Part shown: positions 2,143 through 63,093 of the stretch, piece after piece
Numbering within the stretch: position 1 is the first letter of the stretch
How the letters are laid out: every line of letters begins with the position of its first letter
Assembly: GCA_945861875.1 (NCBI GenBank)
Contig: CAMAWC010000004.1
Span: 4,597 to 68,596 of the forward strand
From: Bordetella parapertussis
Lineage (GTDB): Bacteria > Pseudomonadota > Gammaproteobacteria > Burkholderiales > SG8-39
Length of the DNA stretch: 64,000 bases
Direction: 5' to 3'
Position numbers and translations under genes: made by a program
Notes under the pieces: model-generated
Told to the model about the DNA's origin: nothing
Databases searched by the model: none
The model's input: the letters and a program-made list of their open reading frames with translations, nothing else

Positions 2143-2183
2143 TTGATCTGCATCAAAACCGGTATTGGCCGGCTTGCTAGGGT
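2143..2183 (+). promoter_or_regulatory. candidate FNR/CRP-family class II promoter of maeA
   Basis: Box TTGATCTGCATCAA 2143-2156 is a perfect 10/10 consensus. The -10-like TAGGGT 2178-2183 starts 28.5 bp from the box centre. The centre lies 105.5 bp upstream of ATG 2255. Confidence 0.7.
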
Positions 2184-2254
2184 AGGCGGCACCGTCTGTG
2201 CGTATGAACGAGGGGAGTATTCGCGCCGATCCGTATCTGTGTAGAGGAGGAAGC

Positions 2255-4373: not shown

Positions 4374-4508
4374 GCAGTCAGTTGTTCTGCGACCGGTATT
4401 GGTGTGGTGAAACTCGTGCTTGCCAGCTGGCAAGGTGATGCCAGCATCCTATAAAAAAGGGCGGCGTTTGCAGTGCTCCGTTTTCAATGTTGCAGGGGAA
4501 AAGACAAC

Positions 4509-6299: not shown

Positions 6300-6303
6300 C
6301 GGC

Positions 6304-6344
6304 TTGATCCATGTCAAGACGCGCGGCGCGTGGCGGTGTATTTG
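6304..6344 (+). promoter_or_regulatory. candidate FNR/CRP-family class II promoter of the c5-OFOR-frd operon
   Basis: Box TTGATCCATGTCAA 6304-6317 (9/10) is identical to the rquA box. The weaker -10-like TATTTG 6339-6344 starts 28.5 bp from the box centre. The box begins 5 bp after the upstream stop codon. Confidence 0.55.
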
Positions 6345-6384
6345 TAGAGCGTGTTGTTAGAGCGCAAACAAAGGAGGAATGATC

Positions 6385-7044
6385 ATGAGTGACAAGATGC
6401 CCGGCGTATGGCGGCAGGTGGCGGTGGTGGCGATGCTTGCCTTTGCCTTGCCCCTTGGGGCACAACAGGCGGCGGCACAGCAAGCGGCGGCCCCCAAGGC
6501 CGGCGATCGCAGCGGCAAGCAGGTGGTCGATGCCACCTGCGCCTCCTGTCACGCCAGCGGCGCCAACGGCGCGCCGAAGATCGGTGACGTCAAGGCCTGG
6601 AGCGCACGCTCCAAGCAAGGCCTGTCCAGCCTGACCAAGGAAGCCATCGGCGGTATTCGCAAAATGCCCGGGCACGGCGGCGACGCGACCCTGACCGACC
6701 TGGAAATCGGCCGTGCCGTGACCTACATGGTCAACCAGTCCGGCGGCAAGTGGACCGAACCTGCGAGTCCCAAGGACATGGCAAAAGAGCGCAGCGGCAG
6801 GCAGATTGTTGAAATGCAGTGCTACCGCTGCCATGAAAACGGCACGGGCGGGGCGCCGAAAATCGGCGACCGGCAAGCCTGGATACCGCGGGTCAGCCAG
6901 GGCTTGGATAACGTCACGCGCTCGGCCATACGCGGGCACGGCGGCATGCCGGCGCGCGGCGGCATGGCCGATGTCAGCGACACCGAGTTGCGCAACGCGA
7001 TTGCCTACATGCTCAATTACGGCACCGGCGCGGAAAAGAAATGA
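6385..7044 (+). CDS. dihaem cytochrome c, two c5-type domains
   Basis: ATG 6385 lies 6 nt after AGGAGGA. Signal peptide present. Two CXXCH motifs (CASCH, CYRCH), each followed by G..GAPKIGD..AW, which is typical of cytochrome c5. Confidence 0.85.
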   Translation: MSDKMPGVWRQVAVVAMLAFALPLGAQQAAAQQAAAPKAGDRSGKQVVDATCASCHASGANGAPKIGDVKAWSARSKQGLSSLTKEAIGGIRKMPGHGGDATLTDLEIGRAVTYMVNQSGGKWTEPASPKDMAKERSGRQIVEMQCYRCHENGTGGAPKIGDRQAWIPRVSQGLDNVTRSAIRGHGGMPARGGMADVSDTELRNAIAYMLNYGTGAEKK

Positions 7045-7081
7045 GTCTCACGGCCATGGCCTAACAGGCTGGGGGGCAACC

Positions 7082-7666
7082 ATGTTCCAGGTGCGCATTC
7101 ACGGCAGGGGCGGTCAGGGCGTGGTCTCGGCCGCGGAAATGCTCTCGGTGGCCGCATTCGACGAAGGGCGTTTCGCCCAGGCTTTCCCCAGCTTCGGTTC
7201 TGAGCGCATGGGTGCGCCGGTGATGGCCTTTTGCCGCATCGACAGGCGCGAGATCCGCTCGCGCGAACCGGTGATGCAGCCCGATGCGCTGATCATCCAG
7301 GACCCGACCCTGCTGCACCAGGTGGACTTGTTCAGCGGGCTCGCCGCCGGCGGCTTCATCCTCATTAATTCCAGGCGCAGTGCCGAGGAACTGGGCATAG
7401 CCGAACTGGCGCACGGCATCGGACACGACCACCTGTGTACGGTGCCGGCGAGTGATTTAGCCCTCAAGCACACCGGCAGGTCGATGCCCAATGCCGCGCT
7501 GCTGGGCGGGTTTGCCGCCATCACCGGGCAGTTGCACCTCGATTCGGTGACCAAGGCGATACGCGAAAAGTTTCCCGGCAAGGTGGGCGAGTCCAACGTG
7601 GCCGCCGCCGAGGCCGCCTACGAGCACGTCATGAAGGAGCGGCAATCGCCGGCTACCCATGCTTAA
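7082..7666 (+). CDS. 2-oxoacid:ferredoxin oxidoreductase, gamma subunit
   Basis: MFQVRIHGRGGQGVVSAAEMLSVAAF...FPSFGSERMGAP is the characteristic POR/KOR gamma N-terminus. 194 aa. Confidence 0.9.
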   Translation: MFQVRIHGRGGQGVVSAAEMLSVAAFDEGRFAQAFPSFGSERMGAPVMAFCRIDRREIRSREPVMQPDALIIQDPTLLHQVDLFSGLAAGGFILINSRRSAEELGIAELAHGIGHDHLCTVPASDLALKHTGRSMPNAALLGGFAAITGQLHLDSVTKAIREKFPGKVGESNVAAAEAAYEHVMKERQSPATHA

Positions 7667-8912
7667 GCAAACCGAAGGCTCACACGCCATCGCCGAAGCG
7701 GTGGCCTTATGCCGCCCGGAGGTGATTTGCGCGTACCCGATCACACCCCAGACGCACATCGTCGAGGGCCTGGGCGAGATGGTCAAGGACGGTTCCCTCA
7801 CCGGCTGCGAGTTCATCAACGTCGAGTCCGAATTCGCCGCCTTGTCGGTGGCCATAGGCTCGTCGGCCGCCGGGGCGCGCAGCTACACCGCCACGGCCAG
7901 CCAGGGCATCCTGTTCATGGCCGAGGCGGTATATAACGCCGCCGGCCTCGGCCTGCCCATCGTCATGACCATAGGCAATCGCGCCATTGGCGCACCCATC
8001 AACATCTGGAACGACCACTCGGACAGCATGTCGATGCGCGACGCCGGTTGGATACAGCTTTATGCCGAGAACAACCAGGAGGCGGCCGACCTGCACATCC
8101 AGGCGTTTCGCCTCGCTGAGGAATTGTCCTGCCCGGTGATGGTCTGCGTCGACGGTTTCATTCTGACCCACGCCTATGAGCGCGTGGACATTCCGACGCA
8201 GGCCCAGGTGGACGAATACCTGCCGCCGTTCGAACCGGTGCAGCAGCTTGACTGCGACGATCCGGTGTCCATCGGCGCCATGGTCGGGCCGGAGGCGTTT
8301 TTTGAGGTGCGTTACCTGCAGCACTACAAGCAGCAGCGCGCCCTTGAGCTCATTCCGCACTTTGCCGAGGAATTCAAGAACCTGTTCGGGCGCGAGGCCG
8401 GCGGCCTGGTGCGCGCCTACCAGTGCGACGACGCTGAAACCATCGTCGTGGCACTGGGTTCGGTCAACGGCACCATCAAGGATGTGGTCGATGAGATGCG
8501 CGCAGCGGGGCACCGCATCGGCGTGCTGACGCTGTGCTCCTTCCGGCCGTTTCCTCTGACTGCTGTGCGCACGGCGCTGATCAAGGCAAAGCGCGTGGTC
8601 GTACTGGAGAAGTCCCTCGCCGTCGGCATCGGCGGCGTGGTCTCCGATGGCGTGCGCAAGGCCTTGTCCGGCGTGGTATTGCGCGGCTACACGGTGATTG
8701 CCGGACTGGGCGGTCGCGCCATTACCGGTAAATCGCTGCGCGCCTTGTTTGAGAAGGCCGAGCGCGACGAACTCGAGATGCTCAGTTTCCTTGATCTGAA
8801 TTGGGACGTGGTCGAGCGCGAGCTCGAGCGCGGGCGGCAACAACGGCGCTCCGGACCGACCGCCGAGAACATCCTGCGCGACCTCGGTCCGGCCGGCGCG
8901 CGCATAGGCTAG
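7659..8912 (+). CDS. 2-oxoacid:ferredoxin oxidoreductase, alpha subunit
   Basis: 417 aa. EGSHAIAEAVALCRPEVICAYPITPQT is the alpha-subunit signature. The start overlaps the gamma stop codon. Confidence 0.9.
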   Translation: MLKQTEGSHAIAEAVALCRPEVICAYPITPQTHIVEGLGEMVKDGSLTGCEFINVESEFAALSVAIGSSAAGARSYTATASQGILFMAEAVYNAAGLGLPIVMTIGNRAIGAPINIWNDHSDSMSMRDAGWIQLYAENNQEAADLHIQAFRLAEELSCPVMVCVDGFILTHAYERVDIPTQAQVDEYLPPFEPVQQLDCDDPVSIGAMVGPEAFFEVRYLQHYKQQRALELIPHFAEEFKNLFGREAGGLVRAYQCDDAETIVVALGSVNGTIKDVVDEMRAAGHRIGVLTLCSFRPFPLTAVRTALIKAKRVVVLEKSLAVGIGGVVSDGVRKALSGVVLRGYTVIAGLGGRAITGKSLRALFEKAERDELEMLSFLDLNWDVVERELERGRQQRRSGPTAENILRDLGPAGARIG

Positions 8913-8923
8913 CGGGGGACATC

Positions 8924-9925
8924 ATGACGCTGCAATCGGTGAAGTTCTACCAGACCGGCACCTTTACCGTGGGCAACCGCCTGCTCGAAGCGGCCGATCG
9001 CACGGTGCAGGCGAACATGCGCCGCACCAATTCGCTCAACTCCGGCCACCGCGCCTGCCAGGGTTGCGGCGAGGCGCTCGGTGCGCGCTACGCCATCGAC
9101 GCGGCGATGCAGGCGACCAACAACCGCATCATGGCGGTCAATGCCACCGGCTGCCTGGAAGTGTTCTCCACGCCTTACCCGGAGACTTCCTGGCAGATTC
9201 CGTGGATACATTCGCTGTTCGGCAATGCCGCGGCGGTGGCATCGGGCGTGGCGGCGGGGCTGCGGGTAAAGGGGCGCAAGGATGTGCGCGTGGTGGCGCA
9301 GGGCGGCGATGGCGGCACCACCGACATCGGTTTTGGCTGCCTGTCGGGCATGTTCGAGCGCAACGACGACGTGCTCTACATCTGCTATGACAACGAGGCC
9401 TACATGAACACCGGCGTGCAGCGCTCCAGCGCCACGCCGCCGGCGGCGCGCACCGCCACCACCATGGCGGTGGGCGCGCATCCGGGCAATGTCTTTGGCA
9501 CCGGCAAGAACCTGCCGCTGATCGCCATGGCGCACAACATCCCCTACGTCGCGACGGCCTCGGTGGCCAACCTGCACGACCTGGAGGCCAAGGTGACGCG
9601 CGCCATGGGCATGCACGGTGCGCGCTACGTCCATATCCATGTGCCATGCCCGCTGGGCTGGGGATCGCAACCCGCCGACACCATGCTGGTCGCACGTATG
9701 GCGGTTGAGTCGGGACTGTTTCCACTGATCGAGGCCGAGCACGGCGAAGTGACCGGGCGTTACCGGTTGCGCAAGCAGGTTCCGGTCGAGGACTACCTCA
9801 AGTTGCAAAAGCGTTTTTCCCACTTGTTCGGCACCAAAGGCGAACCGGCCACCGTGGCCGCCATCCAGGCCATGGCTGATGCCAATATCCGCAGGTTTGG
9901 TCTTGCCCAGCCGGTTAGCGCATGA
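8924..9925 (+). CDS. 2-oxoacid:ferredoxin oxidoreductase, beta (TPP-binding) subunit
   Basis: ATG 8924. CQGCG cluster ligands. TPP motif GGDGGTTDIGFGCLSGMFERNDDVLYICYDNEAYMNTG. Confidence 0.9.
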   Translation: MTLQSVKFYQTGTFTVGNRLLEAADRTVQANMRRTNSLNSGHRACQGCGEALGARYAIDAAMQATNNRIMAVNATGCLEVFSTPYPETSWQIPWIHSLFGNAAAVASGVAAGLRVKGRKDVRVVAQGGDGGTTDIGFGCLSGMFERNDDVLYICYDNEAYMNTGVQRSSATPPAARTATTMAVGAHPGNVFGTGKNLPLIAMAHNIPYVATASVANLHDLEAKVTRAMGMHGARYVHIHVPCPLGWGSQPADTMLVARMAVESGLFPLIEAEHGEVTGRYRLRKQVPVEDYLKLQKRFSHLFGTKGEPATVAAIQAMADANIRRFGLAQPVSA

Positions 9926-11559
9926 ACAAGCCGCTGAACAAACCTTTTGCCATCACGCTGGACCCGGGCTCCAGCCTTGCCAATCACACCGGTACCTGGC
10001 GCACCGAGCGCCCGGTGTATCTTGACCGCCTGCCGCCGTGCAATCACGCCTGCCCGGCCGGGGAAGACATCCAGGGCTGGCTCTACCACGCCGAAAGCGG
10101 CGACTACGAACGCGCCTGGCGCGAGCTGGTGAAGAACAATCCGATGCCGGCGTTGATGGGACGGGTGTGCTACCACCCCTGCGAAGACAGCTGCAACCGC
10201 GGCAAGCTCGACAGCGCGGTAAGCATCCATGCCGTGGAGAGGTTCCTTGGCGATCAGGCGTTAAAGCAAAAATGGCAATTTGCGCCTGAGGCAGCCGCGA
10301 GCGGCAAGCGCGTGCTGGTGGTGGGGGCGGGGCCCTCCGGCCTCTCGGCGGCCTACCACCTGACCCGGCTTGGCCATAGCGTGACCATTTACGAAGCGGG
10401 CCCGATGGCGGGTGGCATGATGCGTTTCGGCATTCCGAAATACCGTCTGCCGCGTGACGTGCTGGACGGCGAGATTGCGCGCATCCTCGACATGGGCATT
10501 GAGCTGAAGCTCAACACCCGCGTCGACGACATCCTCGAATCCATGGCCAAGGGCGGTTTTGATGCGGCCTTTCTGGCGGTGGGTGCGCATATCGGGCGCA
10601 GGACCGACATTCCGGCGCGCGACGCGGGCAAGATCCTCGATGCGGTGATGGTGTTGCGCGGCATGGAAACAGGCGAGATGCCGCAACTGGGCCGGCGTGT
10701 CGTGGTCTACGGCGGCGGCAACACGGCGCTGGATGTGGCGCGCACCGCCAAGCGCCTTGGCGCAGCCGAGGCGATGATCGTCTACCGGCGCACGCAGGCG
10801 CAGATGCCGGCGCACGAGGCCGAGTTGCAGGAGGCCCTCGACGAAGGTGTGATGGTGAAATGGCTCAACACCATCAAGAGCATCGACCAGACGCACTTTA
10901 CCGTGGAAAAAATGGCCCTCGACGACAAGGGCTTTCCGCAACCGACCGGCGAAATGGAAACCATAGAGGCCGACACCCTGGTGCTGGCGCTGGGCCAGGA
11001 CGTCGATTTGTCGCTGCTCGACAAGGTGCCGGGCCTGGCCATCGAAAAAGGCGTGGTGCGGGTGGACAAGAACATGATGAGCGGCTACCCCGGCATTTTC
11101 GCCGGCGGCGATATGGTGCCCTCGGATCGCACCGTCACGGTGGCCATAGGTCATGGCAAAAAGGCCGCGCGCAATATCGACGCCTGGCTGCACGGCAAGA
11201 CCGCGGCAGCCGTTGAAAAGCACGAGCTGGCGCGCTTTGACCTGCTCAACACCTGGTATTACGCCGATGCGCCCAAGACGGTGCAGCCGGTGCTTGACAT
11301 GCTGCGCCGCCAATCGAGTTTTGACGAGGTGCTGGGCGGCCTCGATGAGGGCAACGCCTTGTTCGAGGCGCGGCGTTGCCTGTCCTGCGGCAACTGTTTC
11401 GAGTGCGACAACTGCTACGGCGTGTGCCCGGACAATGCGGTGACCAAGCTGGGCCCGGGCAAGCGCTTCGAGTTCAATTACGACTACTGCAAGGGCTGCG
11501 GGCTTTGCGTGTCGGAATGCCCCTGCGGCGCGATAAAGATGACCCCCGAAACGATGTGA
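9922..11559 (+). CDS. GltD-like NAD(P)H flavoprotein fused to a 2x[4Fe-4S] ferredoxin (OFOR delta-like) module
   Basis: N-terminal Fe-S region (CPAGEDIQGW...CYHPCEDSCNR). Two Rossmann motifs (VVGAGPSGLSAAY; VYGGGNTALDVART). C-terminal CLSCGNCFECDNCYGVCP...CKGCGLCVSECPCG. The start overlaps the beta-subunit stop. Confidence 0.85.
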   Translation: MNKPLNKPFAITLDPGSSLANHTGTWRTERPVYLDRLPPCNHACPAGEDIQGWLYHAESGDYERAWRELVKNNPMPALMGRVCYHPCEDSCNRGKLDSAVSIHAVERFLGDQALKQKWQFAPEAAASGKRVLVVGAGPSGLSAAYHLTRLGHSVTIYEAGPMAGGMMRFGIPKYRLPRDVLDGEIARILDMGIELKLNTRVDDILESMAKGGFDAAFLAVGAHIGRRTDIPARDAGKILDAVMVLRGMETGEMPQLGRRVVVYGGGNTALDVARTAKRLGAAEAMIVYRRTQAQMPAHEAELQEALDEGVMVKWLNTIKSIDQTHFTVEKMALDDKGFPQPTGEMETIEADTLVLALGQDVDLSLLDKVPGLAIEKGVVRVDKNMMSGYPGIFAGGDMVPSDRTVTVAIGHGKKAARNIDAWLHGKTAAAVEKHELARFDLLNTWYYADAPKTVQPVLDMLRRQSSFDEVLGGLDEGNALFEARRCLSCGNCFECDNCYGVCPDNAVTKLGPGKRFEFNYDYCKGCGLCVSECPCGAIKMTPETM

Positions 11560-11612: not shown

Positions 11613-13403
11613 GTGGATGTGTTTAAAGCGGATGTGGCGATTGTGGGCGCGGGCGGCGCCGGCTTGCGCGCGGCCATAGCCGTGGCCGAGGCCGACCCGA
11701 AACTGGTCGTTGCGCTCATTTCCAAGGTCTACCCGATGCGCAGCCACACCGTGGCGGCCGAGGGCGGCGCGGCGGCGGTGACGCGGCCCGACGACAGCCT
11801 GGAACACCACTTCAACGACACCGTCGGTGGCGGCGACTGGTTGTGCGAGCAGGACGTGGTCGAGTACTTTGTCGCCCACGCCCACGAGGAAATGGTGCAG
11901 ATGGAACACTGGGGTTGCCCGTGGAGCCGCAAGGAGGACGGCCACGCCAACGTGCGCGCCTTTGGCGGCATGAAAATCGAGCGCACCTGGTTTGCCGCCG
12001 ACAAGACCGGCTTTCACATGTTGCACACCTTGTTTCAGACCTCGATCAAGTATCCGTCGATCAAGCGCTTTGACGAGCATTTTTGTGTCGACCTGCTGGT
12101 CGAGGACGATCGCGTCCAGGGTGTGGTGACCATCGAAAACGCCAGCGGCGAGTTCACGTTGATCCAGGCGAAATCAGTGATTATCGCGACCGGCGGCGCC
12201 GGCCGCGTGTTTCGCGAGAACACTAACGGCGGCATTGTCACCGGTGATGGCATGGCGCTCGCCTACCGCCACGGCGTGCCGCTGCGTGACATGGAATTCG
12301 TGCAATACCACCCGACCTGCATGCCCGGCACCGGGTTGCTGTTTACCGAGGCTTGCCGTGGCGAAGGCGGGTTTTTGCTCAACAAGGATGGCTATCGCTA
12401 CCTGCAGGACTACGGCCTCGGACCGGCGACGCCGGAGCCGCGCAACAAGGCGATGGAACTGGGGCCACGCGACCGCTTGAGCCAGGCCTTCTGGCACGAA
12501 AAACAAAAGGGCAGGACAGTCGACGGCCGTCACGGCGCGGTGGTGCACCTTGATTTGCGTCATATCGGCGAACAAAAGCTGCGCGAGCGCCTGCCGCAGA
12601 TTTACGAACTGGCCGAGCAATTTCTTGGCGTCGATCCGGCGCACGAACCGATTCCGGTGTTGCCGGCGGTGCACTACACCATGGGCGGCATTATCGCCGA
12701 CGGCAAGTGCGCCTCAACGCTGCCGGGGCTGTACTCGGTCGGCGAATGTTCCAGCGTCGGCATACACGGCGCCAATCGCCTCGGCTCGAACTCACTCACC
12801 GAGCTGATCGTTTTTGGCAAGGTCGCCGGTATCGAGGCGGCGCAGTACGCGCGCTCGGTCAATCACGGCGATGCTGCGACACTGGGAAAACAAGCCGATG
12901 CGGTGGCCGCAAAGGCCCTTGGGATAGCCACCGGCAATGGTGGCACGGAACGCATGGCGGTGTTGCGCACCGAAATGGCCAAAACCATGGAGGAGGGCTG
13001 CGGTATCTATCGCCTTGGCACCGAGATGCAAGCCACCTGCGACAAGATCGACGAATTGAAGCAGCGCTACCGCAACCTCAAATTGGACGATAAGTCGCGG
13101 GTCTGGAATACCGAGTGGCTGCTGGCCATTGAGCTTGGGTACCTGCTCGATGTGGCGCAGGCGATGGCTTACTCGGCCTTCAACCGCAAGGAATCGCGCG
13201 GCTCGCACCAGCGCCTGGACGGCTATGAGCAGCGCGACGATGCGAACTACCTCAAACACACGTTGGCCTATTTCAGCGGCGACGGCGCACCGCGAATCGC
13301 CTACGGTGATGTAAAAATAACCAAATCCAAACCGGGAACCCGCGCCTATGGCGCCGCCGGCGAGAAGGCCGATGCAGACCGAAAGGCAGCCGCCCATGAC
13401 TGA
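11613..13403 (+). CDS. frdA: fumarate reductase flavoprotein subunit
   Basis: GTG start. Near-colinear with E. coli FrdA as recalled (ADVAIVGAGGAGLRAAIA, SKVYPMRSHTVAAEGG, GDWLCEQDVV, HYTMGGI, GANRLGSNSL). Confidence 0.95.
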   Translation: MDVFKADVAIVGAGGAGLRAAIAVAEADPKLVVALISKVYPMRSHTVAAEGGAAAVTRPDDSLEHHFNDTVGGGDWLCEQDVVEYFVAHAHEEMVQMEHWGCPWSRKEDGHANVRAFGGMKIERTWFAADKTGFHMLHTLFQTSIKYPSIKRFDEHFCVDLLVEDDRVQGVVTIENASGEFTLIQAKSVIIATGGAGRVFRENTNGGIVTGDGMALAYRHGVPLRDMEFVQYHPTCMPGTGLLFTEACRGEGGFLLNKDGYRYLQDYGLGPATPEPRNKAMELGPRDRLSQAFWHEKQKGRTVDGRHGAVVHLDLRHIGEQKLRERLPQIYELAEQFLGVDPAHEPIPVLPAVHYTMGGIIADGKCASTLPGLYSVGECSSVGIHGANRLGSNSLTELIVFGKVAGIEAAQYARSVNHGDAATLGKQADAVAAKALGIATGNGGTERMAVLRTEMAKTMEEGCGIYRLGTEMQATCDKIDELKQRYRNLKLDDKSRVWNTEWLLAIELGYLLDVAQAMAYSAFNRKESRGSHQRLDGYEQRDDANYLKHTLAYFSGDGAPRIAYGDVKITKSKPGTRAYGAAGEKADADRKAAAHD

Positions 13404-14166
13404 GCCTGTCAAAACCATTCGCATCGAGGTGTTGCGCTACCGCCCGGAGCAGGACAGCGAGCCGGTGGTGCAGGCCTACGACGTGCCTTTTACCGACGAC
13501 ATGTCGGTGCTGCAGGGGGTGCAATACATCAAGGATTACCTTGACGGGACGCTGAGCTTTCGCTGGTCCTGCCGCATGGCGATCTGCGGCAGCTGCGGCA
13601 TGATGATTGGCGGCGTGCCCAAGCTCTCCTGCCAGACCTTTTTGCGCGACTACTACCCGGCGGGACTGCGCATTGATCCGCTGGCGCATTTTCCGATCGA
13701 GCGCGACCTGGTGGTCAACATCGAGGATTTCATCAGCAAGCTTGAAAGCATCAAGCCCTACATCGTGCCCAAGGAAGCGCGTACGCTGGAGCAGGGGGAA
13801 TACCTGCAAACGCCGGGGCAGCTGGAGCAGTTCCTGCAGTTCAGCGGCTGCATCAATTGCACGTTGTGCTACTCGGCCTGCCCGCAGTACGGGCTGGATT
13901 CAAAGTTTACCGGCCCGGGGGTGCTTGCCTTGCTGCACCGCTATAACGCCGATTCGCGCGACGGGGCGAGCGCAGAACGCATGCAGCTGGTTCACACGGA
14001 GGAAGGGGTGTGGGGCTGCACCGCGGTAGGCTATTGCTCGGAAGTCTGCCCCAAGGGTGTGGATCCCGCCAATGCGGTCAACCAGAACAAGACAGCGAGT
14101 GCGATGGACTATTTCCTCAGGTTCGTAAGGCCCCAAGGGGCTGAAAACAAGGGAGGTGCCAAATGA
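13396..14166 (+). CDS. frdB: fumarate reductase iron-sulfur subunit
   Basis: ATG 13396 overlaps the frdA stop. RWSCRMAICGSCGMM, FSGCINCTLCYSACP and GYCSEVCPKGVDP match E. coli FrdB. Confidence 0.95.
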   Translation: MTEPVKTIRIEVLRYRPEQDSEPVVQAYDVPFTDDMSVLQGVQYIKDYLDGTLSFRWSCRMAICGSCGMMIGGVPKLSCQTFLRDYYPAGLRIDPLAHFPIERDLVVNIEDFISKLESIKPYIVPKEARTLEQGEYLQTPGQLEQFLQFSGCINCTLCYSACPQYGLDSKFTGPGVLALLHRYNADSRDGASAERMQLVHTEEGVWGCTAVGYCSEVCPKGVDPANAVNQNKTASAMDYFLRFVRPQGAENKGGAK

Positions 14167-14561
14167 GTGCGCGCCGTCCGTATGTGCGCTCCATGGACGG
14201 GTGGTGGCGCCGCGACCCGTTCTTTGTCCGGTACATGGCGCGGGAAGCGACCGCGGTATTCGTCGTGGCCTATGCGGTGGTGCTGCTGGTCGGGGTTTTG
14301 CGCTTGTCGCAGGGTGAGGCCGCGTTCAACGGCTGGCTGGCGGCGCTGCGCAGTCCCGCTTCAGTGGCGTTCCACGTGTTCCTGCTGGCGATTTTTGTTT
14401 ATCACACCTGGAGCTGGTTTCGCATCATGCCCAAGACCATGCCGCTGATCCTGCCCGATGGCCGGCGCCTGCAGCCGGGGCTGATTACCGGCGCCGGGCT
14501 CGCGGTGGCCGCGGTGTTGTGCCTGGGTGGATTGCTCGTCCTGATGGGGGTGAAGCCATGA
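14163..14561 (+). CDS. frdC: fumarate reductase membrane anchor subunit C
   Basis: 132 aa with 3 TM helices. N-terminus RRPYVRSMDGWWRRDPFFVRYMAREATAV parallels E. coli FrdC ([31 protein letters not shown]). Confidence 0.9.
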   Translation: MSARRPYVRSMDGWWRRDPFFVRYMAREATAVFVVAYAVVLLVGVLRLSQGEAAFNGWLAALRSPASVAFHVFLLAIFVYHTWSWFRIMPKTMPLILPDGRRLQPGLITGAGLAVAAVLCLGGLLVLMGVKP

Positions 14562-14914
14562 AGCGCTCGAACGCGCCGATTTTCTGGTCGATGTTCGGCG
14601 CCGGCGGCATGATTTCGGCGCTGATCGGCCCGTTACTGGTGTTTGTCACCGGCATTGCCGTGCCGCTTGGCCTGCTGTTGCCGCCCGATACGATGAACTA
14701 CGCGCGCATGCTCGGTTTCGCGCAGAACTGGCTGGGCAAGGCATTCCTGTTTGCCGTCATTTCGCTGTTCATGTGGCATGGCGTGCACCGCATTTTCCAC
14801 AGCCTGCACGACATCGGCATACCTACGGGAACCCTGGCCAAACTCGCTTGTTACGGTTTTGCCCTGGCCGGTACGCTGGTAGCGGGGTATGTGCTGATAG
14901 CAATCGGATTCTAG
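14558..14914 (+). CDS. frdD: fumarate reductase membrane anchor subunit D
   Basis: ATG 14558 overlaps the frdC stop (ATGA). KRSNAPIFWSMFGAGGM parallels E. coli FrdD (KRSDEPVFWGLFGAGGM). 118 aa. Confidence 0.9.
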   Translation: MKRSNAPIFWSMFGAGGMISALIGPLLVFVTGIAVPLGLLLPPDTMNYARMLGFAQNWLGKAFLFAVISLFMWHGVHRIFHSLHDIGIPTGTLAKLACYGFALAGTLVAGYVLIAIGF

Positions 14915-14937: not shown

Positions 14938-14978
14938 TTGACGCAGATCAACAGGCGAGCCGGAACCTTCCCTATTCT
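14938..14978 (+). promoter_or_regulatory. candidate FNR/CRP-family class II promoter of tctBAC
   Basis: Box TTGACGCAGATCAA 14938-14951 (9/10). The -10-like TATTCT 14973-14978 starts 28.5 bp from the box centre. A short leader carrying GGAGGAGG precedes ATG 14997. Confidence 0.55.
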
Positions 14979-14996: not shown

Positions 14997-15488
14997 ATGG
15001 ACAATAAGGACATTCGCCCACGCCGGTCATTGGGCGCAGTATTCAGGCAGCAGGATGTCATAGGCGGTCTGGTGGTGTTTGCCGTGGGCGTGTTTGCCTT
15101 CTGGCAGTCGGCCAACCTGCCAATTGGCACACTCGGGGGCATGGGTGCCGGCATGTTGCCGCGATCTCTGGCCGTATTGCTAGGCCTTCTCGGATTGCTG
15201 CTGGCGTTGTCGGCGGCGCCCAAGGACGGGCCTGCGCTCGAAAAATTATCAATACGCGGGCCGGTATTAATCCTTGGCGCTGTCGTTGTATTCGGCTTGG
15301 CGGTACGACCCCTCGGACTTGCGGTTGCCGGACCCGTCGCCATAATGATTGGAGCCTTTGCCAGCGAAGACGTGCGCTGGCTTGAGGCGCTGGTGTTTGG
15401 CCTGCTGATCACAGCTTTTTGCACCGCCTTGTTCAAGTTCGCCCTCGGACTGCCAATTCCGCTGGCGCCGTGGCTTTTGGGTTATTGA
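14997..15488 (+). CDS. tctB: tripartite tricarboxylate transporter small membrane subunit TctB
   Basis: 163 aa with 4 hydrophobic helices, immediately upstream of tctA. Strong RBS. Confidence 0.8.
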   Translation: MDNKDIRPRRSLGAVFRQQDVIGGLVVFAVGVFAFWQSANLPIGTLGGMGAGMLPRSLAVLLGLLGLLLALSAAPKDGPALEKLSIRGPVLILGAVVVFGLAVRPLGLAVAGPVAIMIGAFASEDVRWLEALVFGLLITAFCTALFKFALGLPIPLAPWLLGY

Positions 15489-15498
15489 GGCCGGCGCC

Positions 15499-17001
15499 AT
15501 GTATGACTTGATCGCCAATCTTGGACTTGGCTTTGCCACCGCGCTGACACCGGTCAACCTGGCGCTGTGTTTTGTCGGTTGTCTGGTTGGCACCCTCGTT
15601 GGCGTTTTGCCGGGAGTGGGGCCGATCGCGACCATCGCCATGCTGATGCCGCTTACCCTCAAGGCCGAGCCGACCGGGGCGCTGATCATGCTCGCGGGCA
15701 TTTATTACGGCGCGCAATACGGTGGTTCGACCACGGCGATCCTCGTCAACATGCCCGGGGAAGTGACCTCGGTGGTGACCGCCCTCGATGGCCACATGAT
15801 GGCGAAAAACGGCCAGGCCGGCATTGCCCTCGGCACCGCCGCAATTGCTTCGTTTTTCGCCGGCACGGTTGCAACGCTGGTAATCGCCGCTATTGGCGCG
15901 CCATTGACCAAGCTGGCCCTGTTGTTCGGTCCGGCGGAGTACTTCGGGCTGATGGTGTTCGGTCTTGGTCTGGCGATCGTCCTGGCGCACGGCTCTGTGC
16001 TAAAGGCCATCATCATGGTGGTGTTCGGGCTGCTGCTTGCCACCGTCGGCACCGATCTTGAAACCGGCCAGGAGCGTCTTACGCTCGGCTTGTCCGACTT
16101 GTCTGACGGGGTTGATTTCGCCGTGCTTGCCATGGGCGTGTTCGGCATCGCCGAGATTTTGCGCAATCTGGAAAACCCGGAATCGCGCAATGTGGCGGTC
16201 GCCAAGATAGGCAAGTTGCTGCCATCCATCGACGACTTGCGCCGTTGTTTCGGTCCGATCGTACGTGCTACCGGCATTGGGTCGGTATTGGGAATCCTGC
16301 CGGGCAATGGCGCGGTGCTCGCACCCTTTGCGTCCTATACGCTGGAAAAAAAGCTGGCCAAGGATCCCTCGCGCTTCGGCAAGGGGGCGATTGAAGGCGT
16401 GGCGGGGCCGGAGGCGGCCAATAATGCCGGTGCGCAGACGGCGTTCATTCCGCTGTTGACCCTGGGCATCCCGCCCAATGCGGTGATGGCGCTGATGGTC
16501 GGGGCGATGACCATACACGGCATCATTCCCGGCCCGCAGGTGATGACCAAGGCGCCGACGCTGTTCTGGGGAATGATCGCCTCGATGTGGATAGGCAACC
16601 TGATGCTGCTCATCATCAACCTGCCGCTGGTCGGCCTTTGGGTGAGGCTGCTCAAGGTGCCCTACCGGCTCATGTCCATCACCATCCTGCTGTTTTGCAG
16701 CATCGGCATTTACTCCATCAACAACAGCCCGTCCGACGTCTACTTCACCGCATTTTTTGGTTTGGTTGGTTACGCGTTTATCAAGCTCGGCCTGGAACCT
16801 GCGCCGATGCTGCTCGGATTCGTGCTTGGCCGCCTGATGGAGGAAAAGCTCAGGCAGGCGCTGGCGCTCTCGGAGGGTAGTTTCATGACCTTTGTCGAGC
16901 GGCCGGTCGCGGCGGTGCTGCTGCTTCTAGCGCTTGTGGTGATGGTGATCGCGGTGTTGCCGGCGATGAGCAAGCGGCGTGATGAGGCGTTCCAGGAGTG
17001 A
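15499..17001 (+). CDS. tctA: tripartite tricarboxylate transporter large permease TctA
   Basis: 500-aa polytopic protein with typical TctA blocks (GVLPGVGP, YGGSTTAILVN(M)PGE, PGNGAVLA). Confidence 0.92.
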   Translation: MYDLIANLGLGFATALTPVNLALCFVGCLVGTLVGVLPGVGPIATIAMLMPLTLKAEPTGALIMLAGIYYGAQYGGSTTAILVNMPGEVTSVVTALDGHMMAKNGQAGIALGTAAIASFFAGTVATLVIAAIGAPLTKLALLFGPAEYFGLMVFGLGLAIVLAHGSVLKAIIMVVFGLLLATVGTDLETGQERLTLGLSDLSDGVDFAVLAMGVFGIAEILRNLENPESRNVAVAKIGKLLPSIDDLRRCFGPIVRATGIGSVLGILPGNGAVLAPFASYTLEKKLAKDPSRFGKGAIEGVAGPEAANNAGAQTAFIPLLTLGIPPNAVMALMVGAMTIHGIIPGPQVMTKAPTLFWGMIASMWIGNLMLLIINLPLVGLWVRLLKVPYRLMSITILLFCSIGIYSINNSPSDVYFTAFFGLVGYAFIKLGLEPAPMLLGFVLGRLMEEKLRQALALSEGSFMTFVERPVAAVLLLLALVVMVIAVLPAMSKRRDEAFQE

Positions 17002-17051
17002 AACACATAAAACGCGGTTCACAGTAGCCAGTTTTCCAAAAGGAGATAAGC

Positions 17052-18029
17052 ATGAAACGCATCCTAATTACGGCATTCGCCTTCGGTCTGTCGCTGGCGG
17101 CCACCCTGGCCCTCGGCCAAGCTTACCCATCCCGGCCTGTCACCATCATCGTTCCATTCGCCGCCGGTGGACCGACCGACATCATTGCCCGCATCGTCGG
17201 AGAATATTATTCCAAGGCGCTAGGTCAGCAGTTCGTCGTGGAGAACGTCGCCGGGGCGGGCGGTACCACCGGAATAACGCGTGGCGCACAATCCAAATCT
17301 GACGGCTACACCATCATGATGGGGCACATGGGGACGCACGGTGCGGCACCCGCACTCTACGCCAATCTCAAATACGATCCGGCCAAGGATTTCGAACCGA
17401 TCGGCCTGGTGGCGGGGACGCCGATACTGATCGTGGCGAGGAAGGATTTCCCGGCGGCAAACATGAAAGAGTTTGTGGCGCGTATCAAGGATCCTGCGGC
17501 CAAAGCCAAGCAGGCGCACGCCGGCGTCGGTTCGGTGTCCTTCACCACCTGCACGCTGCTCACTTCGCAGATAGGCGTGAAGAACATTGTTGTCGCCTAC
17601 CGCGGTACCGGACCGGCGTTGAACGACCTGGTCGGCGGCCAGGTGGACTACATGTGCGACCAGATCGTCAACCTCGTGTCGCAAGTCCAGGGCGGCGCCG
17701 TCAAGGCCTATGCCATCGCCACACCCGAGCGTTCGCCGGCGCTGCCGGATGTCCCGACCACCAAGGAGGCGGGGTTTCCCGATTATCAGGTGAGCGCCTG
17801 GAACGCATTGTTCGCGCCCAAGGGCACGCCCAAGGACATCATGGCCAAGCTCAACGAGACTCTGGTCAAGGCGCTCGACGACCCGGCCACGCGCAAGCGC
17901 CTCCTTGAACTGGGCAGCGTAATTCCGGACAAGGCGGGTCGTTCGCCCGAAGAACTCGCCGCACTGGTCAAAAACGAGGTTGCGCGCTGGACGCCGATAT
18001 TGAAGGCTGCCGGGGCAGTCGGACAGTAA
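17052..18029 (+). CDS. tctC: TctC/Bug-family periplasmic substrate-binding protein
   Basis: Signal peptide followed by YPSRPVTIIVPFAAGGPTD, the Bug-family hallmark. 325 aa. Confidence 0.9.
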   Translation: MKRILITAFAFGLSLAATLALGQAYPSRPVTIIVPFAAGGPTDIIARIVGEYYSKALGQQFVVENVAGAGGTTGITRGAQSKSDGYTIMMGHMGTHGAAPALYANLKYDPAKDFEPIGLVAGTPILIVARKDFPAANMKEFVARIKDPAAKAKQAHAGVGSVSFTTCTLLTSQIGVKNIVVAYRGTGPALNDLVGGQVDYMCDQIVNLVSQVQGGAVKAYAIATPERSPALPDVPTTKEAGFPDYQVSAWNALFAPKGTPKDIMAKLNETLVKALDDPATRKRLLELGSVIPDKAGRSPEELAALVKNEVARWTPILKAAGAVGQ

Positions 18030-18160
18030 AGCGTGCAAAAAACCCGTCGATTGCGCCGCGGCGCGCATCCGACGGCGTTGCGCCCGGCATGGTCGGGACG
18101 ATGGGCGCGCAGGCTGCTTACCTTACTTGGTTGCGGGCCGGGCCGACCCCGGATGCAGGG

Positions 18161-18871
18161 TCAGACCGAAATCACCAGCTTCTGGTACAGCCCGCCGTAG
18201 TAGGTCCGCTTGCTGATCTGTTCGGGGCGTATGCCTTCGGGCAGCCAGCTGCTGATGTCCTGCCGCCACAAGTCCATGGCAAACGGCTCAAGCCAGTCCA
18301 GCACCGGCCGGAACAGGTAGCGCAATGGGTGCAGGGGTCCGGGGAGGTGGTAGTCGACGATGACCACCTTGCCGCCGGGTTTGACCACCCTGATGGCTTC
18401 GCTGAGTGTTTTTGTGCGCACCGCCTCGGGTTGCTCGTGCAGCAGGAAAAACAGCACCGCCTGGTCGTAGCTTGCGTCGGCAAAGCCGAGCGCCGCCGAG
18501 TCACGCTGGTACAAGACCACTGGGGCGGAAGCGGGGAGTTTCTTGCGCAAATTGCCCAGCTGTATGGACAGGATATCGACCACATCCAATTCGCCGCCCG
18601 GGGCGATGCGCCCGGCGAGCATGGGGGAGAAGTTACCGTAGACGCAGGCGACCTGCAGGCTGCGCCCGGTGACGGAGGCACCGAGTTCATCCAGTGCGGC
18701 GTCGCGCAGGCGCGCGAAATTGCCCCACAGAATGGCATTCACCAGCCATTGGCGCTCAAACATGCGCACGGCATTGGGGTGGACATAAGCCCACCAATAG
18801 ACCTTTTCCAGATACGCCGGGATTGCCGCAGCCGGTAGTTCGATCGCTTTTTGTTCGCCTGCGTAAGCCAT
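18161..18871 (-). CDS. rquA: RquA-like class I methyltransferase-fold protein (candidate rhodoquinone biosynthesis enzyme)
   Basis: 236 aa with SD AGGGGGG. Methyltransferase fold with an atypical motif I, LQVACVYGNF, in place of E/DxGxGxG. Also ILWGN, FFLLHEQP, VVIVDYH, LEPFA and GGLYQK blocks that I recall as RquA-type. Confidence 0.6.
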   Translation of the reverse strand: MAYAGEQKAIELPAAAIPAYLEKVYWWAYVHPNAVRMFERQWLVNAILWGNFARLRDAALDELGASVTGRSLQVACVYGNFSPMLAGRIAPGGELDVVDILSIQLGNLRKKLPASAPVVLYQRDSAALGFADASYDQAVLFFLLHEQPEAVRTKTLSEAIRVVKPGGKVVIVDYHLPGPLHPLRYLFRPVLDWLEPFAMDLWRQDISSWLPEGIRPEQISKRTYYGGLYQKLVISV

Positions 18872-18932
18872 GCAGCCCCCCTTTTTTGTTTGCTTTGCGC
18901 AGTATCGGTTTGGGTCGAACCTGCACGAGTAT

Positions 18933-18974
18933 AAGGTATTGGATGCCGGTGGCGGGTATGTTGATCCATGTCAA
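18933..18974 (-). promoter_or_regulatory. candidate FNR/CRP-family class II promoter of rquA
   Basis: Box TTGATCCATGTCAA 18961-18974 (9/10). On the minus strand the -10-like TACCTT (18938-18933) starts 29.5 bp from the box centre. The centre lies 96.5 bp upstream of the rquA ATG. Confidence 0.6.
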
Positions 18975-19096: not shown

Positions 19097-20737
19097 GTGT
19101 CTGCGACTGATAAACATGCGGCGCCGCTGCGGCCCACGCCGGGGGACGGCGAGGCGGCGTACACGCGTCTGATCGCGGCATTGCGCGAACCGTCGCGCCA
19201 TGCCGGACTGGTCGGGCCGGTGGAATTGCTCGAGACACATTGCTCCAGCGTCCTGCTCGTCGGCGGTTTTGCGCTCAAGCTGAAGAAGCCGGTCAACCTG
19301 GGTTTCCTGGATTTCAGCTCGTTGGAGGCGCGCCGCTTTTATTGCAACGAGGAGTTGCGCCTGAACCGGCGCACCGCGCCGCAACTGTATCTTGATGTCG
19401 TTCCCATCGGCGGTAGTGAAGCGGAGCCGGTCATTGGCGCAGAACCCGCCATCGAGTATGCAGTCAGGATGCGGCGCTTTGCGCAGGATGAGTTGCTCTA
19501 TCGCATCGCGCGGGACGGGGTGCTCACGCCGCAGCATGTCGACGGGCTGGCGGCTGCGGTGGCGCAATTTCACGCCGTGGCAGCGGTTGACCCGGAGCGG
19601 TCTTACGGTTCGGCGGCGCAGATCAGGGAGGCGATGCGCGCCAATTGCGCCGAACTCGCGGCGCTGGTGCAAGGACCGCGTGAGCAGGGGCTGCTGGGTG
19701 CGCTGGCTGACTGGTCGGCCGCGCAGTGTGCGGCACTGGCACCACAGTTCGACGCGCGCCGTGACGCCGGCATGGTGCGCGAGTGCCACGGCGACCTGCA
19801 CCTGGGCAATATCGCCTTGATTGAAGACCGGCCGACGCTGTTTGATTGTATCGAGTTCAATGCGGCATTCCGCAACATCGATGTGATCAGCGACAGCGCC
19901 TTCCTGACTATGGACCTCATTTACCACGGTCTCGCGCCGCTGGCGTTTCGTTTCATCAACGCCTATCTTGAGCGAAGCGGTGACTACGCGGCGATGGCCG
20001 TGCTGCGTTTTTACCTTGTGCAGCGCGCACTGATCCGCGCAAAAGTGGCGCGAATCCGCGCCTTGCAACCGGGTATCACCGTCGAACAGAGGGGCGCCGC
20101 AGATAGCTCGTTCTGCGGCCACCTGCTTCTGGCGCGGCGCCTGGCACGCCGCGGGCGCGCTGCGCTGATTGTGATGCACGGGCTGTCCGGCTCGGGCAAG
20201 AGCAGCATCGCCCAGGTCTTGCTCGAGGCGCTGGGTGCGGTGAGGCTGCGCTCGGATGTGGAGCGCAAGCGCCTGTTTGGACTGGAGGCGGTGGGGCGCA
20301 CGGGCGCCACGCCGGACGGCGGAATCTATTCGACAGAGGCCGGCGCACGCACCTACGCGCGCCTGGCGGAAATCGCCGGCAGCCTGCTCGCCGCGGGCTA
20401 TCCGGTCATTGTCGACGCCGCATGCCTGCAGCGCGACCAGCGCGAATTGCTGTGCCGCGTCGCCGGGGAGCAGGGCCTGCCCTTTGCGATTGTTTCGTGC
20501 GAGGCCGCATTGCCGGTATTGCGCGAGCGGGTCGCACGGCGGGAGCAGCAGGGTGCTGATGCGTCCGATGCGGACTTGGCAATCCTCGAACGGCAACGTC
20601 GCACATTGCAGCCGCTGGGCGCCGATGAAATGGTGCACGTCATCCGGATTGCCACCGCTGTCGATGGCGCGGGCGGGCAGGGCGTCGCCACCGCGCTGGC
20701 GCGGCGTCTCGGCCTGGTCAGATACCGCAACGCATAG
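19097..20737 (+). CDS. bifunctional phosphotransferase (APH-like)/P-loop ATP-binding protein
   Basis: GTG start, 546 aa. N-terminal kinase-like domain (HGDLHLGNI). C-terminal P-loop GLSGSGKSS. Confidence 0.8.
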   Translation: MSATDKHAAPLRPTPGDGEAAYTRLIAALREPSRHAGLVGPVELLETHCSSVLLVGGFALKLKKPVNLGFLDFSSLEARRFYCNEELRLNRRTAPQLYLDVVPIGGSEAEPVIGAEPAIEYAVRMRRFAQDELLYRIARDGVLTPQHVDGLAAAVAQFHAVAAVDPERSYGSAAQIREAMRANCAELAALVQGPREQGLLGALADWSAAQCAALAPQFDARRDAGMVRECHGDLHLGNIALIEDRPTLFDCIEFNAAFRNIDVISDSAFLTMDLIYHGLAPLAFRFINAYLERSGDYAAMAVLRFYLVQRALIRAKVARIRALQPGITVEQRGAADSSFCGHLLLARRLARRGRAALIVMHGLSGSGKSSIAQVLLEALGAVRLRSDVERKRLFGLEAVGRTGATPDGGIYSTEAGARTYARLAEIAGSLLAAGYPVIVDAACLQRDQRELLCRVAGEQGLPFAIVSCEAALPVLRERVARREQQGADASDADLAILERQRRTLQPLGADEMVHVIRIATAVDGAGGQGVATALARRLGLVRYRNA

Positions 20738-39874: not shown

Positions 39875-40975
39875 ATGTCCGGTAATACCCTAGGCAAACT
39901 GTTCTGCGTTACCTCGTTCGGCGAGTCCCACGGCCCGGCGCTGGGCGGCGTGGTTGACGGCTGCCCGCCAGGGATGGCGCTTGCCGAGGCTGACATCCAG
40001 AAGGAATTGGACCGGCGCAAGCCCGGCACTTCCCGCCACGTCACCCAGCGCCAGGAGTCAGACCGGATCGAACTGCTGTCGGGACTTTTCGAAGGGCGCA
40101 CCACCGGTGCGCCGATCGGCTTCGTCATTCGCAACGAAGACCAACGCTCGAAGGACTATGGCGCCATTGCCGAAACCTTCCGGCCCGGCCATGCCGACTA
40201 TACCTACTGGCAAAAATACGGCCTGCGCGATTATCGCGGCGGCGGCCGTTCTTCCGCGCGCGAAACTACCATACGCGTGGCGGCGGGGGCGATCGCCAAG
40301 AAATGGCTGCACGAGCGTTACGGCGTGACCATACGTGGTCGGCTGTCGCAAATCGGTCCGCATGACCTGGCATTCAAGTCCTGGGACGCGGTTTCACAGA
40401 ACCCGTTTTTCTCGGCTGACCCGGACATTGTCCCGAAAATCGAGGACTACATGGACGAACTTCGCCGCGCCGGTGATTCCTGCGGCGCGAAAGTCACCGT
40501 AGTGGCGGAAGGTGTGCCGGTGGGGTGGGGTGAACCGGTTTACGACCGGCTCGACGCCGATCTTGCCTACGCCATGATGGGCATCAACGCGGTCAAGGGT
40601 GTGGAAATCGGTGCGGGATTTTCCGCCATCACCCAGCGCGGCAGTGAGCACGGCGACGAAATGACCCCCGAGGGTTTTTTGTCCAATCACGCCGGAGGGA
40701 TGCTCGGCGGCATTTCGACCGGGCAGGATGTGGTGGTGCATATCGCGCTCAAGCCGACTTCGTCGATTCGCCTGCCGCGGCGTTCCATCAACAAGCAGGG
40801 CGAGGCGGTGACGGTGGAGACCACCGGCCGCCACGACCCTTGTGTGGGGATTCGCGCCACGCCGATTGCCGAGGCGATGCTGGCGATCGTGCTGATGGAC
40901 CATGCCTTGCGCCACCGCGCGCAATGTGGCGACGTGTTGCCTCCGACCAAGCCGATTCCTGGCAAGTTACGCTAA
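39875..40975 (+). CDS. aroC: chorismate synthase
   Basis: [41 protein letters not shown]. 366 aa. Confidence 0.97.
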
Positions 40976-62940: not shown

Positions 62941-62981
62941 CCGCCGGCAGATTTGACTGTACCGGGCCGGCGGTGTATTTT
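62941..62981 (+). terminator. rho-independent terminator of purF
   Basis: 8-bp stem ccgccggc/gccggcgg with a 17-nt loop, followed by tgtattttc. Confidence 0.6.
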
Positions 62982-63044
62982 CGGTCTGCGCCGATTTGAG
63001 TGTCAGCTTGCGGGCGCGTAAAAAATACGGCTAAAGCGAGGGCA

Positions 63045-63077
63045 ACCCGTCCTGGCTTGGCGCCATGGCGGGTTTTT
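63045..63077 (+). promoter_or_regulatory. terminator-like hairpin plus U5 inside the metZ leader (candidate attenuator or riboswitch expression platform)
   Basis: acccgtcctggc...gccatggcgggt forms about 11 bp with bulges, followed by TTTTT 63073-63077. It ends 16 nt before the metZ ATG. Confidence 0.45.
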
Positions 63078-63093
63078 ACATTTAAGGCTTACG

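Follow-up and report, generated by a model that had tools for sequence, protein, structure and literature searches.

This study concerns rquA, a gene on the reverse strand of a 64,000-nucleotide stretch of contig CAMAWC010000004.1 (GenBank assembly GCA_945861875.1, listed as Bordetella parapertussis, positions 4,597 to 68,596), together with the fumarate reductase and transporter genes that converge on it. The whole stretch is called the window. An earlier note, made from the sequence alone, had proposed that the gene encodes RquA, the enzyme of rhodoquinone biosynthesis, and that it stands behind an FNR box. The gene and its flanking elements are as follows.

18161-18871, reverse strand: rquA coding sequence, 236 amino acids, ATG start and TGA stop (open reading frame list, NCBIfam NF038261, conserved residues, AlphaFold2 fold)
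18876-18883, reverse strand: Shine-Dalgarno-like AAGGGGGG, 4 nt 5' of the rquA ATG (read from the sequence)
18035-18079, reverse strand: intrinsic-terminator-like hairpin (18079-18041) plus U6 (18040-18035), 3' of the rquA stop (RNA fold of 18025-18165)

The coordinates, strand and length first given for the open reading frame (ORF) proved exact. The start position is kept in the homologues whose alignment begins at residue 1. In the RNA fold, the GC-rich hairpin 3' of rquA is followed by UUUUUU on the rquA strand only. A consensus terminator scan found a sole terminator-like match, which lies inside rquA on the wrong strand, and an Rfam scan of the window found nothing near rquA. ORFs that overlap rquA on the opposite strand (18089-18838, forward, and others) were rejected as shadow ORFs; all homology is on the reverse strand. 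The GC content at third codon positions (GC3) of rquA is 0.78, similar to that of leuB, leuC, asd and aroC in the window. Because GC3 matches that of these housekeeping genes, it suggests that rquA has long been resident in the genome, and a recent horizontal-transfer island was ruled out on the same ground.

The product of rquA is a putative S-adenosylmethionine (SAM)-dependent amino-transferase that would convert ubiquinone to rhodoquinone. The NCBIfam equivalog for RquA (NF038261, rhodoquin_RquA) matched with 300.8 bits against a cut-off of 175 (E 5.9e-90), and the alignment of residues 17-234 took in model positions 1-216 of 218. The second-best NCBIfam match was a MenG model with 39.2 bits against a cut-off of 235. 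The UbiE/MenG equivalogs scored 23-39 bits against cut-offs of 158-420, and every UbiE, MenG or UbiG-type model stood at 39 bits or less, far under its cut-off. Pfam returned generic class I domains only, namely Methyltransf_25 (E 1.5e-10), Ubie_methyltran (E 1.1e-8) and Methyltransf_11.

The protein was compared with 77 other RquA sequences from 80 species-representative genomes and two metagenomic contigs (78 sequences with the window protein), and with UbiE and UbiG of E. coli MG1655, using MAFFT alignment. At columns that are at least 95% conserved in the 77 other sequences the window protein deviates at 0, and the 61 positions at least 97% conserved among RquA are all identical in it. Q73, A75, C76, Y78, G79, D99, H145, E146, D173, Y174, H175, E195 and P196 are invariant or nearly so in RquA (Q73, Y78 and G79 in 78/78 sequences, A75 and C76 in 77/78), and most of them differ in UbiE and UbiG. 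BLASTP gave 26% identity and 38 bits with E. coli UbiE, and no significant match with E. coli UbiG.

A neighbour-joining tree of the 78 RquA sequences plus E. coli UbiE and UbiG, which is distance-based and without bootstrap, placed the window protein deep inside RquA, at distances of 0.48 or less to any RquA and 0.90-0.91 to UbiG and UbiE. The nearest genome-derived relatives (66-75% identity) come from betaproteobacterial metagenome-assembled genomes of the Sterolibacteriaceae and Usitatibacteraceae. The alignment and tree check that the earlier note had proposed, run here with the 77 other RquA sequences and E. coli UbiE and UbiG, thus groups the protein with RquA and apart from the two methyltransferases. 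Family membership and the conserved residues were observed directly, and we regard it as nearly certain that the window protein belongs to the RquA family; model score, family residues and tree placement all uphold the proposed identity. The RquA function is predicted because of this membership, and rquA here is an ordinary, well-conserved member of a known, experimentally validated family.

The sequence motifs of the protein are NAILWGNF at 45-52, LQVACVYGNF at 72-81, FLLHE at 142-146, VDYH at 172-175 and LEPFA at 194-198, and the five blocks by which RquA had been recognized (ILWGN, LQVACVYGNF, FLLHE, VDYH and LEPFA) are all present. The note had placed LQVACVYG at the glycine-rich motif I site, and both alignments put it there: HMMER sets it opposite LDVGCGIG of RebM (3bus), and MAFFT opposite LDLAGGTG of UbiE and LDVGCGGG of UbiG. 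GxGxG is thereby replaced by AxVYG and the acidic residue by Q, which is invariant in RquA; the family-wide form of the motif, LQxACxYG, is retained in the window protein. The divergence of RquA from E/DxGxGxG at this site was described by Stairs 2018 (PMC5953543, section 8, also citing Lonjers 2012).

Two aspartates of R. rubrum RquA, D118 and D143, contact SAM and are required for activity (Neupane 2022, PMC9814641). In the window protein D99 and D124 are separated by 25 residues, the same spacing as D118-D143. D99 is present in 78/78 RquA sequences and aligns with the post-motif-I Asp of UbiE, while the D124 column holds D in 68/78 and N in 9/78. Judged by this spacing and the UbiE alignment, D99 and D124 are the probable equivalents of D118 and D143.

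The class I methyltransferase fold named in the note agrees with the Pfam domains and with an AlphaFold2 model. The model, built with 45 homologues, has a mean predicted local distance difference test score of 83 and a predicted template modelling (TM) score of 0.83, with disorder limited to residues 1-14. In a Foldseek search the best PDB matches were all SAM methyltransferases, including the UbiE orthologue of yeast, Coq5 (4obw, TM score 0.62-0.64). A sequence search of the PDB gave no RquA structure and generic methyltransferases only, the best being RebM (E 3.3e-5).

In the reaction of RquA, the alpha-amino group of SAM is passed to ubiquinone; the enzyme requires Mn2+ but no pyridoxal phosphate, and it suffices by itself for rhodoquinone synthesis (PMC9814641). 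The description of the protein as a methyltransferase is therefore right for its fold and wrong for its activity, in which SAM serves as amino donor. The note had also stated that Betaproteobacteria generally have ubiquinone only. This needs correction, as rquA is found mostly in Betaproteobacteria, and 15/16 RquA homologues sampled across the family tree made rhodoquinone-8 (RQ-8) in E. coli (Chobert 2024, PMC11707229, Text S2). Organisms that otherwise have ubiquinone only can reduce fumarate by means of rhodoquinone, an ability conferred by one enzyme, RquA. The potentials are about -63 mV for rhodoquinol, +30 mV for fumarate and about +100 mV for ubiquinol (PMC5953543, PMC11707229), so that rhodoquinol can reduce fumarate and ubiquinol cannot. 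In R. rubrum, rquA is among the genes up-regulated in anaerobic growth (PMC6529003).

The genes that converge on rquA include a complete fumarate reductase.

11613-14914, forward strand: frdABCD, E. coli-type (type D, haem-free) quinol:fumarate reductase (NCBIfam equivalogs, identity to E. coli)
11613-13403, forward strand: frdA, equivalog 1046 bits against a cut-off of 854
about 13396-14166, forward strand: frdB, equivalog 404 bits against a cut-off of 333
14163-14561, forward strand: frdC, model 93.8 bits, below the cut-off of 143; 35% identity to E. coli FrdC
about 14558-14914, forward strand: frdD, equivalog 140.6 bits against a cut-off of 60

Identity to E. coli FrdA, FrdB, FrdC and FrdD is 63, 55, 35 and 47%, with FrdC aligned full length, over 126 residues. 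The equivalents of E. coli FrdC R28 and E29 and FrdB K228, which we take to be quinone-site residues, are conserved in the window. All frd and tct genes are on the forward strand, and the equivalog matches bear out that an E. coli-type frdABCD lies beside rquA in convergent orientation.

On the same strand 5' of frdA are a dihaem cytochrome c gene, a three-gene 2-oxoacid:ferredoxin oxidoreductase and a GltD-like NAD(P)-binding/ferredoxin fusion, with a multihaem cytochrome and a malic enzyme farther 5'. Judged by shared strand and short gaps, the string from the cytochrome c gene to frdABCD may form one operon. The oxidoreductase and GltD-like fusion genes occupy 6806-11559, directly 5' of frdA. 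A Piscinibacter genome (L038, 2545-7009) has the same four genes, with 65-77% identity, at a distance of about 3 kb from its rquA-frdABCD, which hints at a larger conserved anaerobic module. Region 4473-7044 encodes a 608-amino acid multihaem cytochrome with paired CXXCH motifs and MtrC-like and NapC/NirT-like matches, then the dihaem cytochrome c.

Synteny was examined directly in the 80 species-representative genomes found with an RquA protein, plus the metagenomic contigs L081 and L082. E. coli-type frd genes adjoin rquA in 36/80 genomes; one further locus (L064) adds only a distant frd/sdh homologue. The genes are arranged in three layouts that are clade-specific and track the RquA tree. 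In the first, that of the window's clade, frdABCD is convergent with rquA (13 genomes and contig L081). The other two have all these genes on one strand, with rquA immediately before frdABCD in 19 genomes (the second layout) and frdABCD before rquA in 4 (the third). Complete flanks of 10 kb to either side are available for many rquA loci without frd, for example in Dechloromonas, Thauera and Magnetococcales, which makes the link frequent but not universal. The physical linkage reported for the window is thus real and recurs well outside it. Pairing rquA with frdABCD makes sound biochemical sense, but it is not new: rquA is often near complex II and other respiratory genes (Stairs 2018, PMC5953543, section 8, supplementary file 4), and fumarate reductase flavoprotein genes directly adjoin it in Novispirillum and a Rhodospirillaceae genome (PMC5953543, supplementary table).

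The elements that may control rquA and its neighbours were identified by pattern scan and by comparison of related loci.

18961-18974, no strand assigned: FNR/CRP-family box TTGATCCATGTCAA (TTGACATGGATCAA on the rquA strand), one mismatch to TTGAT-N4-ATCAA (pattern scan)
18928-18940, reverse strand: candidate -10 elements AATACC (18940-18935, 20 nt after the box) and TATACT (18933-18928, 27 nt after the box) (box-anchored comparison)
6304-6317, no strand assigned: FNR-like box, the same 14-mer as the rquA box (TTGATCCATGTCAA), 21 nt before TATTTG, heading the cytochrome c/oxidoreductase/frd string
14938-14951, no strand assigned: FNR-like box TTGACGCAGATCAA between frdD and tctB, 21 nt before TATTCT

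The centre of the rquA box is 96.5 nt upstream of the ATG. The window contains 9 FNR-like boxes against 1.2 expected, with a maximum of 4 in 100 shuffles. Conservation of the box was observed directly: in the window's clade the 300 nt before rquA contain one at 13/16 loci, compared with an average of 0.05 loci and never more than 1 in shuffled sequences, and one of the 3 loci that lack it had just 32 nt of upstream sequence. Across all 80 genomes a box precedes rquA in 17. The FNR box noted before rquA is therefore present at 18961-18974 and kept in most orthologous promoters. A perfect box also lies 81-88 nt before frdA in 6/11 clade loci with a readable frdA upstream region; the window's own frdA has no box within 300 nt.

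Class II FNR-activated promoters have their box centred near -41.5. Anchored on the box, the upstream sequences of 9 related loci share an AATACT-like hexamer 21 nt behind it; if this hexamer is placed at -12/-13, the box centre in these relatives falls near -40.5 to -41.5. In the window the predicted centre is about -40.5 to -41.5 with AATACC, and about -46.5 with the stronger TATACT. The geometry of the relatives is consistent with the class II type, while the exact geometry in the window is uncertain. No rquA promoter that includes a -35 element emerged from a consensus sigma-70 scan, which is what dependence on an activator would lead one to expect. The literature mentioning both rquA and FNR yielded no rquA promoter analysis, and the published FNR-site survey covers ubiTUV only. 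Taken together, the box and its surroundings make control of rquA by an FNR-family regulator likely.

Several observations touch on these boxes. The divergent neighbour at 19097-20737, which shares the box-bearing intergenic region, encodes a 546-amino acid protein with a C-terminal AAA_33 kinase-like domain; homologues with 53-54% identity hold the same divergent position at the loci L001 and L002. The malic enzyme gene at 2198-3907 (NF010052, 718 bits; region 2143-3907) is preceded, at a distance of about 40 nt, by a perfect FNR box, TTGATCTGCATCAA. Another FNR-like box, at 40574-40587, is inside aroC.

Between frdD and rquA the window carries a tripartite tricarboxylate-type transporter (TTT).

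14997-18029, forward strand: tctBAC, tripartite tricarboxylate-type transporter (Pfam TctB, TctA, TctC)
14997-15488, forward strand: tctB (Pfam TctB)
15499-17001, forward strand: tctA (Pfam TctA)
17052-18029, forward strand: tctC, binding protein resembling the C4-dicarboxylate receptor MatC (PDB 6HKE match)

The window TctC matches PDB 6HKE over residues 25-318 (E 9.9e-95) and BugD with E 5.7e-85. 6HKE is MatC of Rhodopseudomonas palustris (PMC13390454), a TTT-family C4-dicarboxylate receptor that binds malate at about 20 nM, while BugD binds aspartate (PMC8556258). Given these matches, we put import of C4-dicarboxylates by tctBAC at about an even chance. Apart from the window, only L082, a relative with 96% identity, has the tct genes between frdD and rquA; L081, a relative with 78% identity, has no tct genes, and its frdD is 32 nt from rquA. 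Because they are present in L082 and absent in L081, tctBAC is read as a recent insertion into an older frd-rquA pair. Another clade locus (L003) has a different insertion between rquA and frdD, at 5323-6819, encoding a protein of about 450 amino acids with an FAD-binding GGGxSG motif that resembles protoporphyrinogen oxidase, judged by eye. The frdD/rquA junction seems prone to insertions, but the L003 locus has no transporter there and lends no support to the transporter idea. The 64 kb hold at least four Bug/TctC-family periplasmic receptors (17052, 24102 on the reverse strand, 28141 and 37165). Such expansions are typical of Burkholderiales-type Betaproteobacteria.

Elsewhere in the window, the gene order is of the leuC-leuB-asd-fimV type, which is typical of Betaproteobacteria. 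Together with the several Bug/TctC receptors and the nearest RquA relatives, it points indirectly to a betaproteobacterial host. A SAM-II (SAM_alpha) riboswitch match at 62978-63051 is barely above its gathering score (36.6 against 36 bits, Rfam); it follows a purF-like gene, and the start of the unannotated ORF 63000-63830 falls within it. The reverse strand at 40995-43994 encodes a 999-amino acid fused membrane/spermidine-synthase-like protein (NF037959, MFS_SpdSyn).

These results can be assembled into a scheme. At low oxygen, an FNR-family regulator would activate rquA from the box at 18961-18974 through a class II-type promoter, and the same regulator would also activate the gene string that ends in frdABCD, and tctBAC. 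RquA, associated with the membrane, would exchange a methoxy group of ubiquinone-8 (UQ-8) for the SAM-derived amino group in one Mn2+-dependent step, yielding RQ-8, and would convert part of the UQ-8 pool. Rhodoquinol could then donate electrons to the adjacent haem-free FrdABCD, opening fumarate respiration to an organism that has ubiquinone and lacks menaquinone. The MatC-like tctBAC would probably import malate or fumarate. Because similar boxes precede all three units, substrate supply, reductase and quinone would be switched on together. Four parts of the scheme are inferred: that the enzyme is active, which quinone the reductase uses, which regulator is at work and what the transporter carries.

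From sequence comparison, we consider it very probable that the gene encodes a functional RquA that feeds the adjacent FrdABCD under FNR-family control; activity of this RquA in vivo, taken by itself, is likewise highly probable. The wider proposal, that rquA, frdABCD and, in this lineage, the inserted MatC-like TTT transporter form a single FNR-type regulon in a clade of uncultured Betaproteobacteria, is tentative, and we place it slightly below even odds.

A number of points weigh against this interpretation. The ORFs of the 64-kb window that were annotated include no ubi genes, and ubiquinone as substrate is assumed. Both the production of rhodoquinone and the use of rhodoquinol by this FrdABCD are predictions, and the counterparts of D118 and D143 were mapped by spacing and the UbiE alignment. 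The window's candidate hexamers stand 20 nt (AATACC) and 27 nt (TATACT) after the box, as against 21 nt for AATACT in the relatives. The window's annotated ORFs also gave no sign of an FNR gene; the box consensus cannot separate FNR, Anr and Dnr members. The gene at 19097 is divergent from rquA, and the box, which lies in the 225 nt between the two, could serve it as well. Among the 16 RquA homologues assayed, one gave no rhodoquinone (PMC11707229). Finally, RquA required oxygen or another oxidant in vitro (PMC9814641), which is awkward if expression is restricted to anoxia, as the anaerobically activated type of promoter in this clade would imply.

The explanation that survives best beside FNR-family control is that the rquA box is a chance match, or serves only the divergent gene 19097-20737, and that rquA is constitutive. 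The box has one mismatch, the consensus scan gave no canonical promoter, and the intergenic region is shared with the divergent gene; moreover, the best -10 hexamer, TATACT, puts the box near -46.5 instead of -41.5. Chance would have to account, however, for a box within 300 nt in 13/16 orthologous loci where shuffles averaged 0.05 and never exceeded 1, for the AATACT-like hexamer fixed 21 nt after the box in 9 loci (scan of the rquA side, rquA strand), and for the excess of boxes in the window. We consider this explanation unlikely.

Less probable still is that the gene is an RquA family member that is inactive here or acts on another quinone, with the fumarate reductase using another donor. 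The assayed homologue that gave no RQ-8 (PMC11707229), the assumed ubiquinone of the host and the FrdC score of 93.8 bits, under the NCBIfam cut-off of 143, would fit such a case. The family-conserved residues are all intact, however, and composition suggests a long-resident gene, while frd adjacency in three independent layouts and a conserved regulated promoter argue for maintained function. We judge an inactive or redirected RquA to be very improbable.

That the protein is an ordinary UbiE/UbiG/MenG-type quinone C- or O-methyltransferase mislabelled through fold similarity, as the generic Pfam domains with Ubie_methyltran (E 1.1e-8) and the JGI label of many close homologues ('ubiquinone/menaquinone biosynthesis C-methylase UbiE') might suggest, was rejected at the sequence level by the model scores (300.8 bits for RquA against 23-39 bits for UbiE/MenG), the AxVYG motif I with Q in place of the acidic residue and the tree distance of about 0.9 to UbiE and UbiG, and has next to no chance of being right.

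With the functional RquA as the preferred reading, the call, if correct, predicts an anaerobic or micro-oxic lifestyle and which quinone the host fumarate reductase uses. Earlier publications already cover the RquA family and its chemistry, how abundant it is in Betaproteobacteria and how close it lies to complex II genes; the annotation is largely expected, and the gain is small. Three modest points are possibly new: that a clade-wide FNR-type promoter precedes rquA, that rquA and frdABCD occur in three independent layouts, and that a MatC-like transporter has been inserted. If the regulon is real, it would give rhodoquinone-dependent fumarate respiration together with its own substrate import, and the three independent arrangements would show repeated selection for the pairing. 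It would also mean that RquA works in vivo under scarce oxygen despite its need for an oxidant in vitro, and it would bear on the question of Chobert 2024 whether a low-potential quinone is gained together with fumarate reductase.

The systems closest to the locus can be compared with it in turn. Like the four-subunit, haem-free frdABCD of E. coli, which is FNR-controlled and uses menaquinol, the window reductase lies in a cluster with FNR-type boxes. Unlike the E. coli enzyme, its expected donor is rhodoquinol, and frdABCD, having no box of its own within 300 nt, appears to follow a longer same-strand gene string headed by the box at 6304. The window TctC is a close homologue of MatC (RPA3494) of R. 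palustris over residues 25-318, but the window tct genes have frdD on one side and rquA on the other and follow an FNR-like box, a setting for which no description for MatC was found in the literature.

The window RquA shares with UbiE/Coq5 and UbiG/Coq3 the fold, the post-motif-I aspartate and a PGG-containing motif after strand 4. It differs in that its motif I is not glycine-rich, identity to UbiE is 26%, H145-E146, D173-Y174-H175 and E195-P196, invariant in RquA, are absent from UbiE and UbiG, and the expected reaction is amino, not methyl, transfer. With R. rubrum RquA (Rru_A3227, UniProt Q2RPC3) it has in common the altered motif I, the aspartates 25 residues apart, the predicted class I SAM fold and a similar length if about 40 dispensable N-terminal residues are left out of account, and its expected chemistry is the same transfer of a SAM-derived amino group to ubiquinone with Mn2+ (PMC9814641). 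Its N-terminus is about 19 residues shorter, as estimated from residue numbering. R. rubrum is an alphaproteobacterium, whereas the window host is probably a betaproteobacterium in which rquA is linked to a type D frdABCD.

The betaproteobacterial RquA homologues of Chobert 2024 (PMC11707229) come from the same organism class as the window. That study sought FNR sites upstream of ubiTUV only, whereas the window clade has a box upstream of rquA itself. It also left open the joint gain of fumarate reductase and rhodoquinone, and in the window clade the frd genes lie adjacent to rquA.

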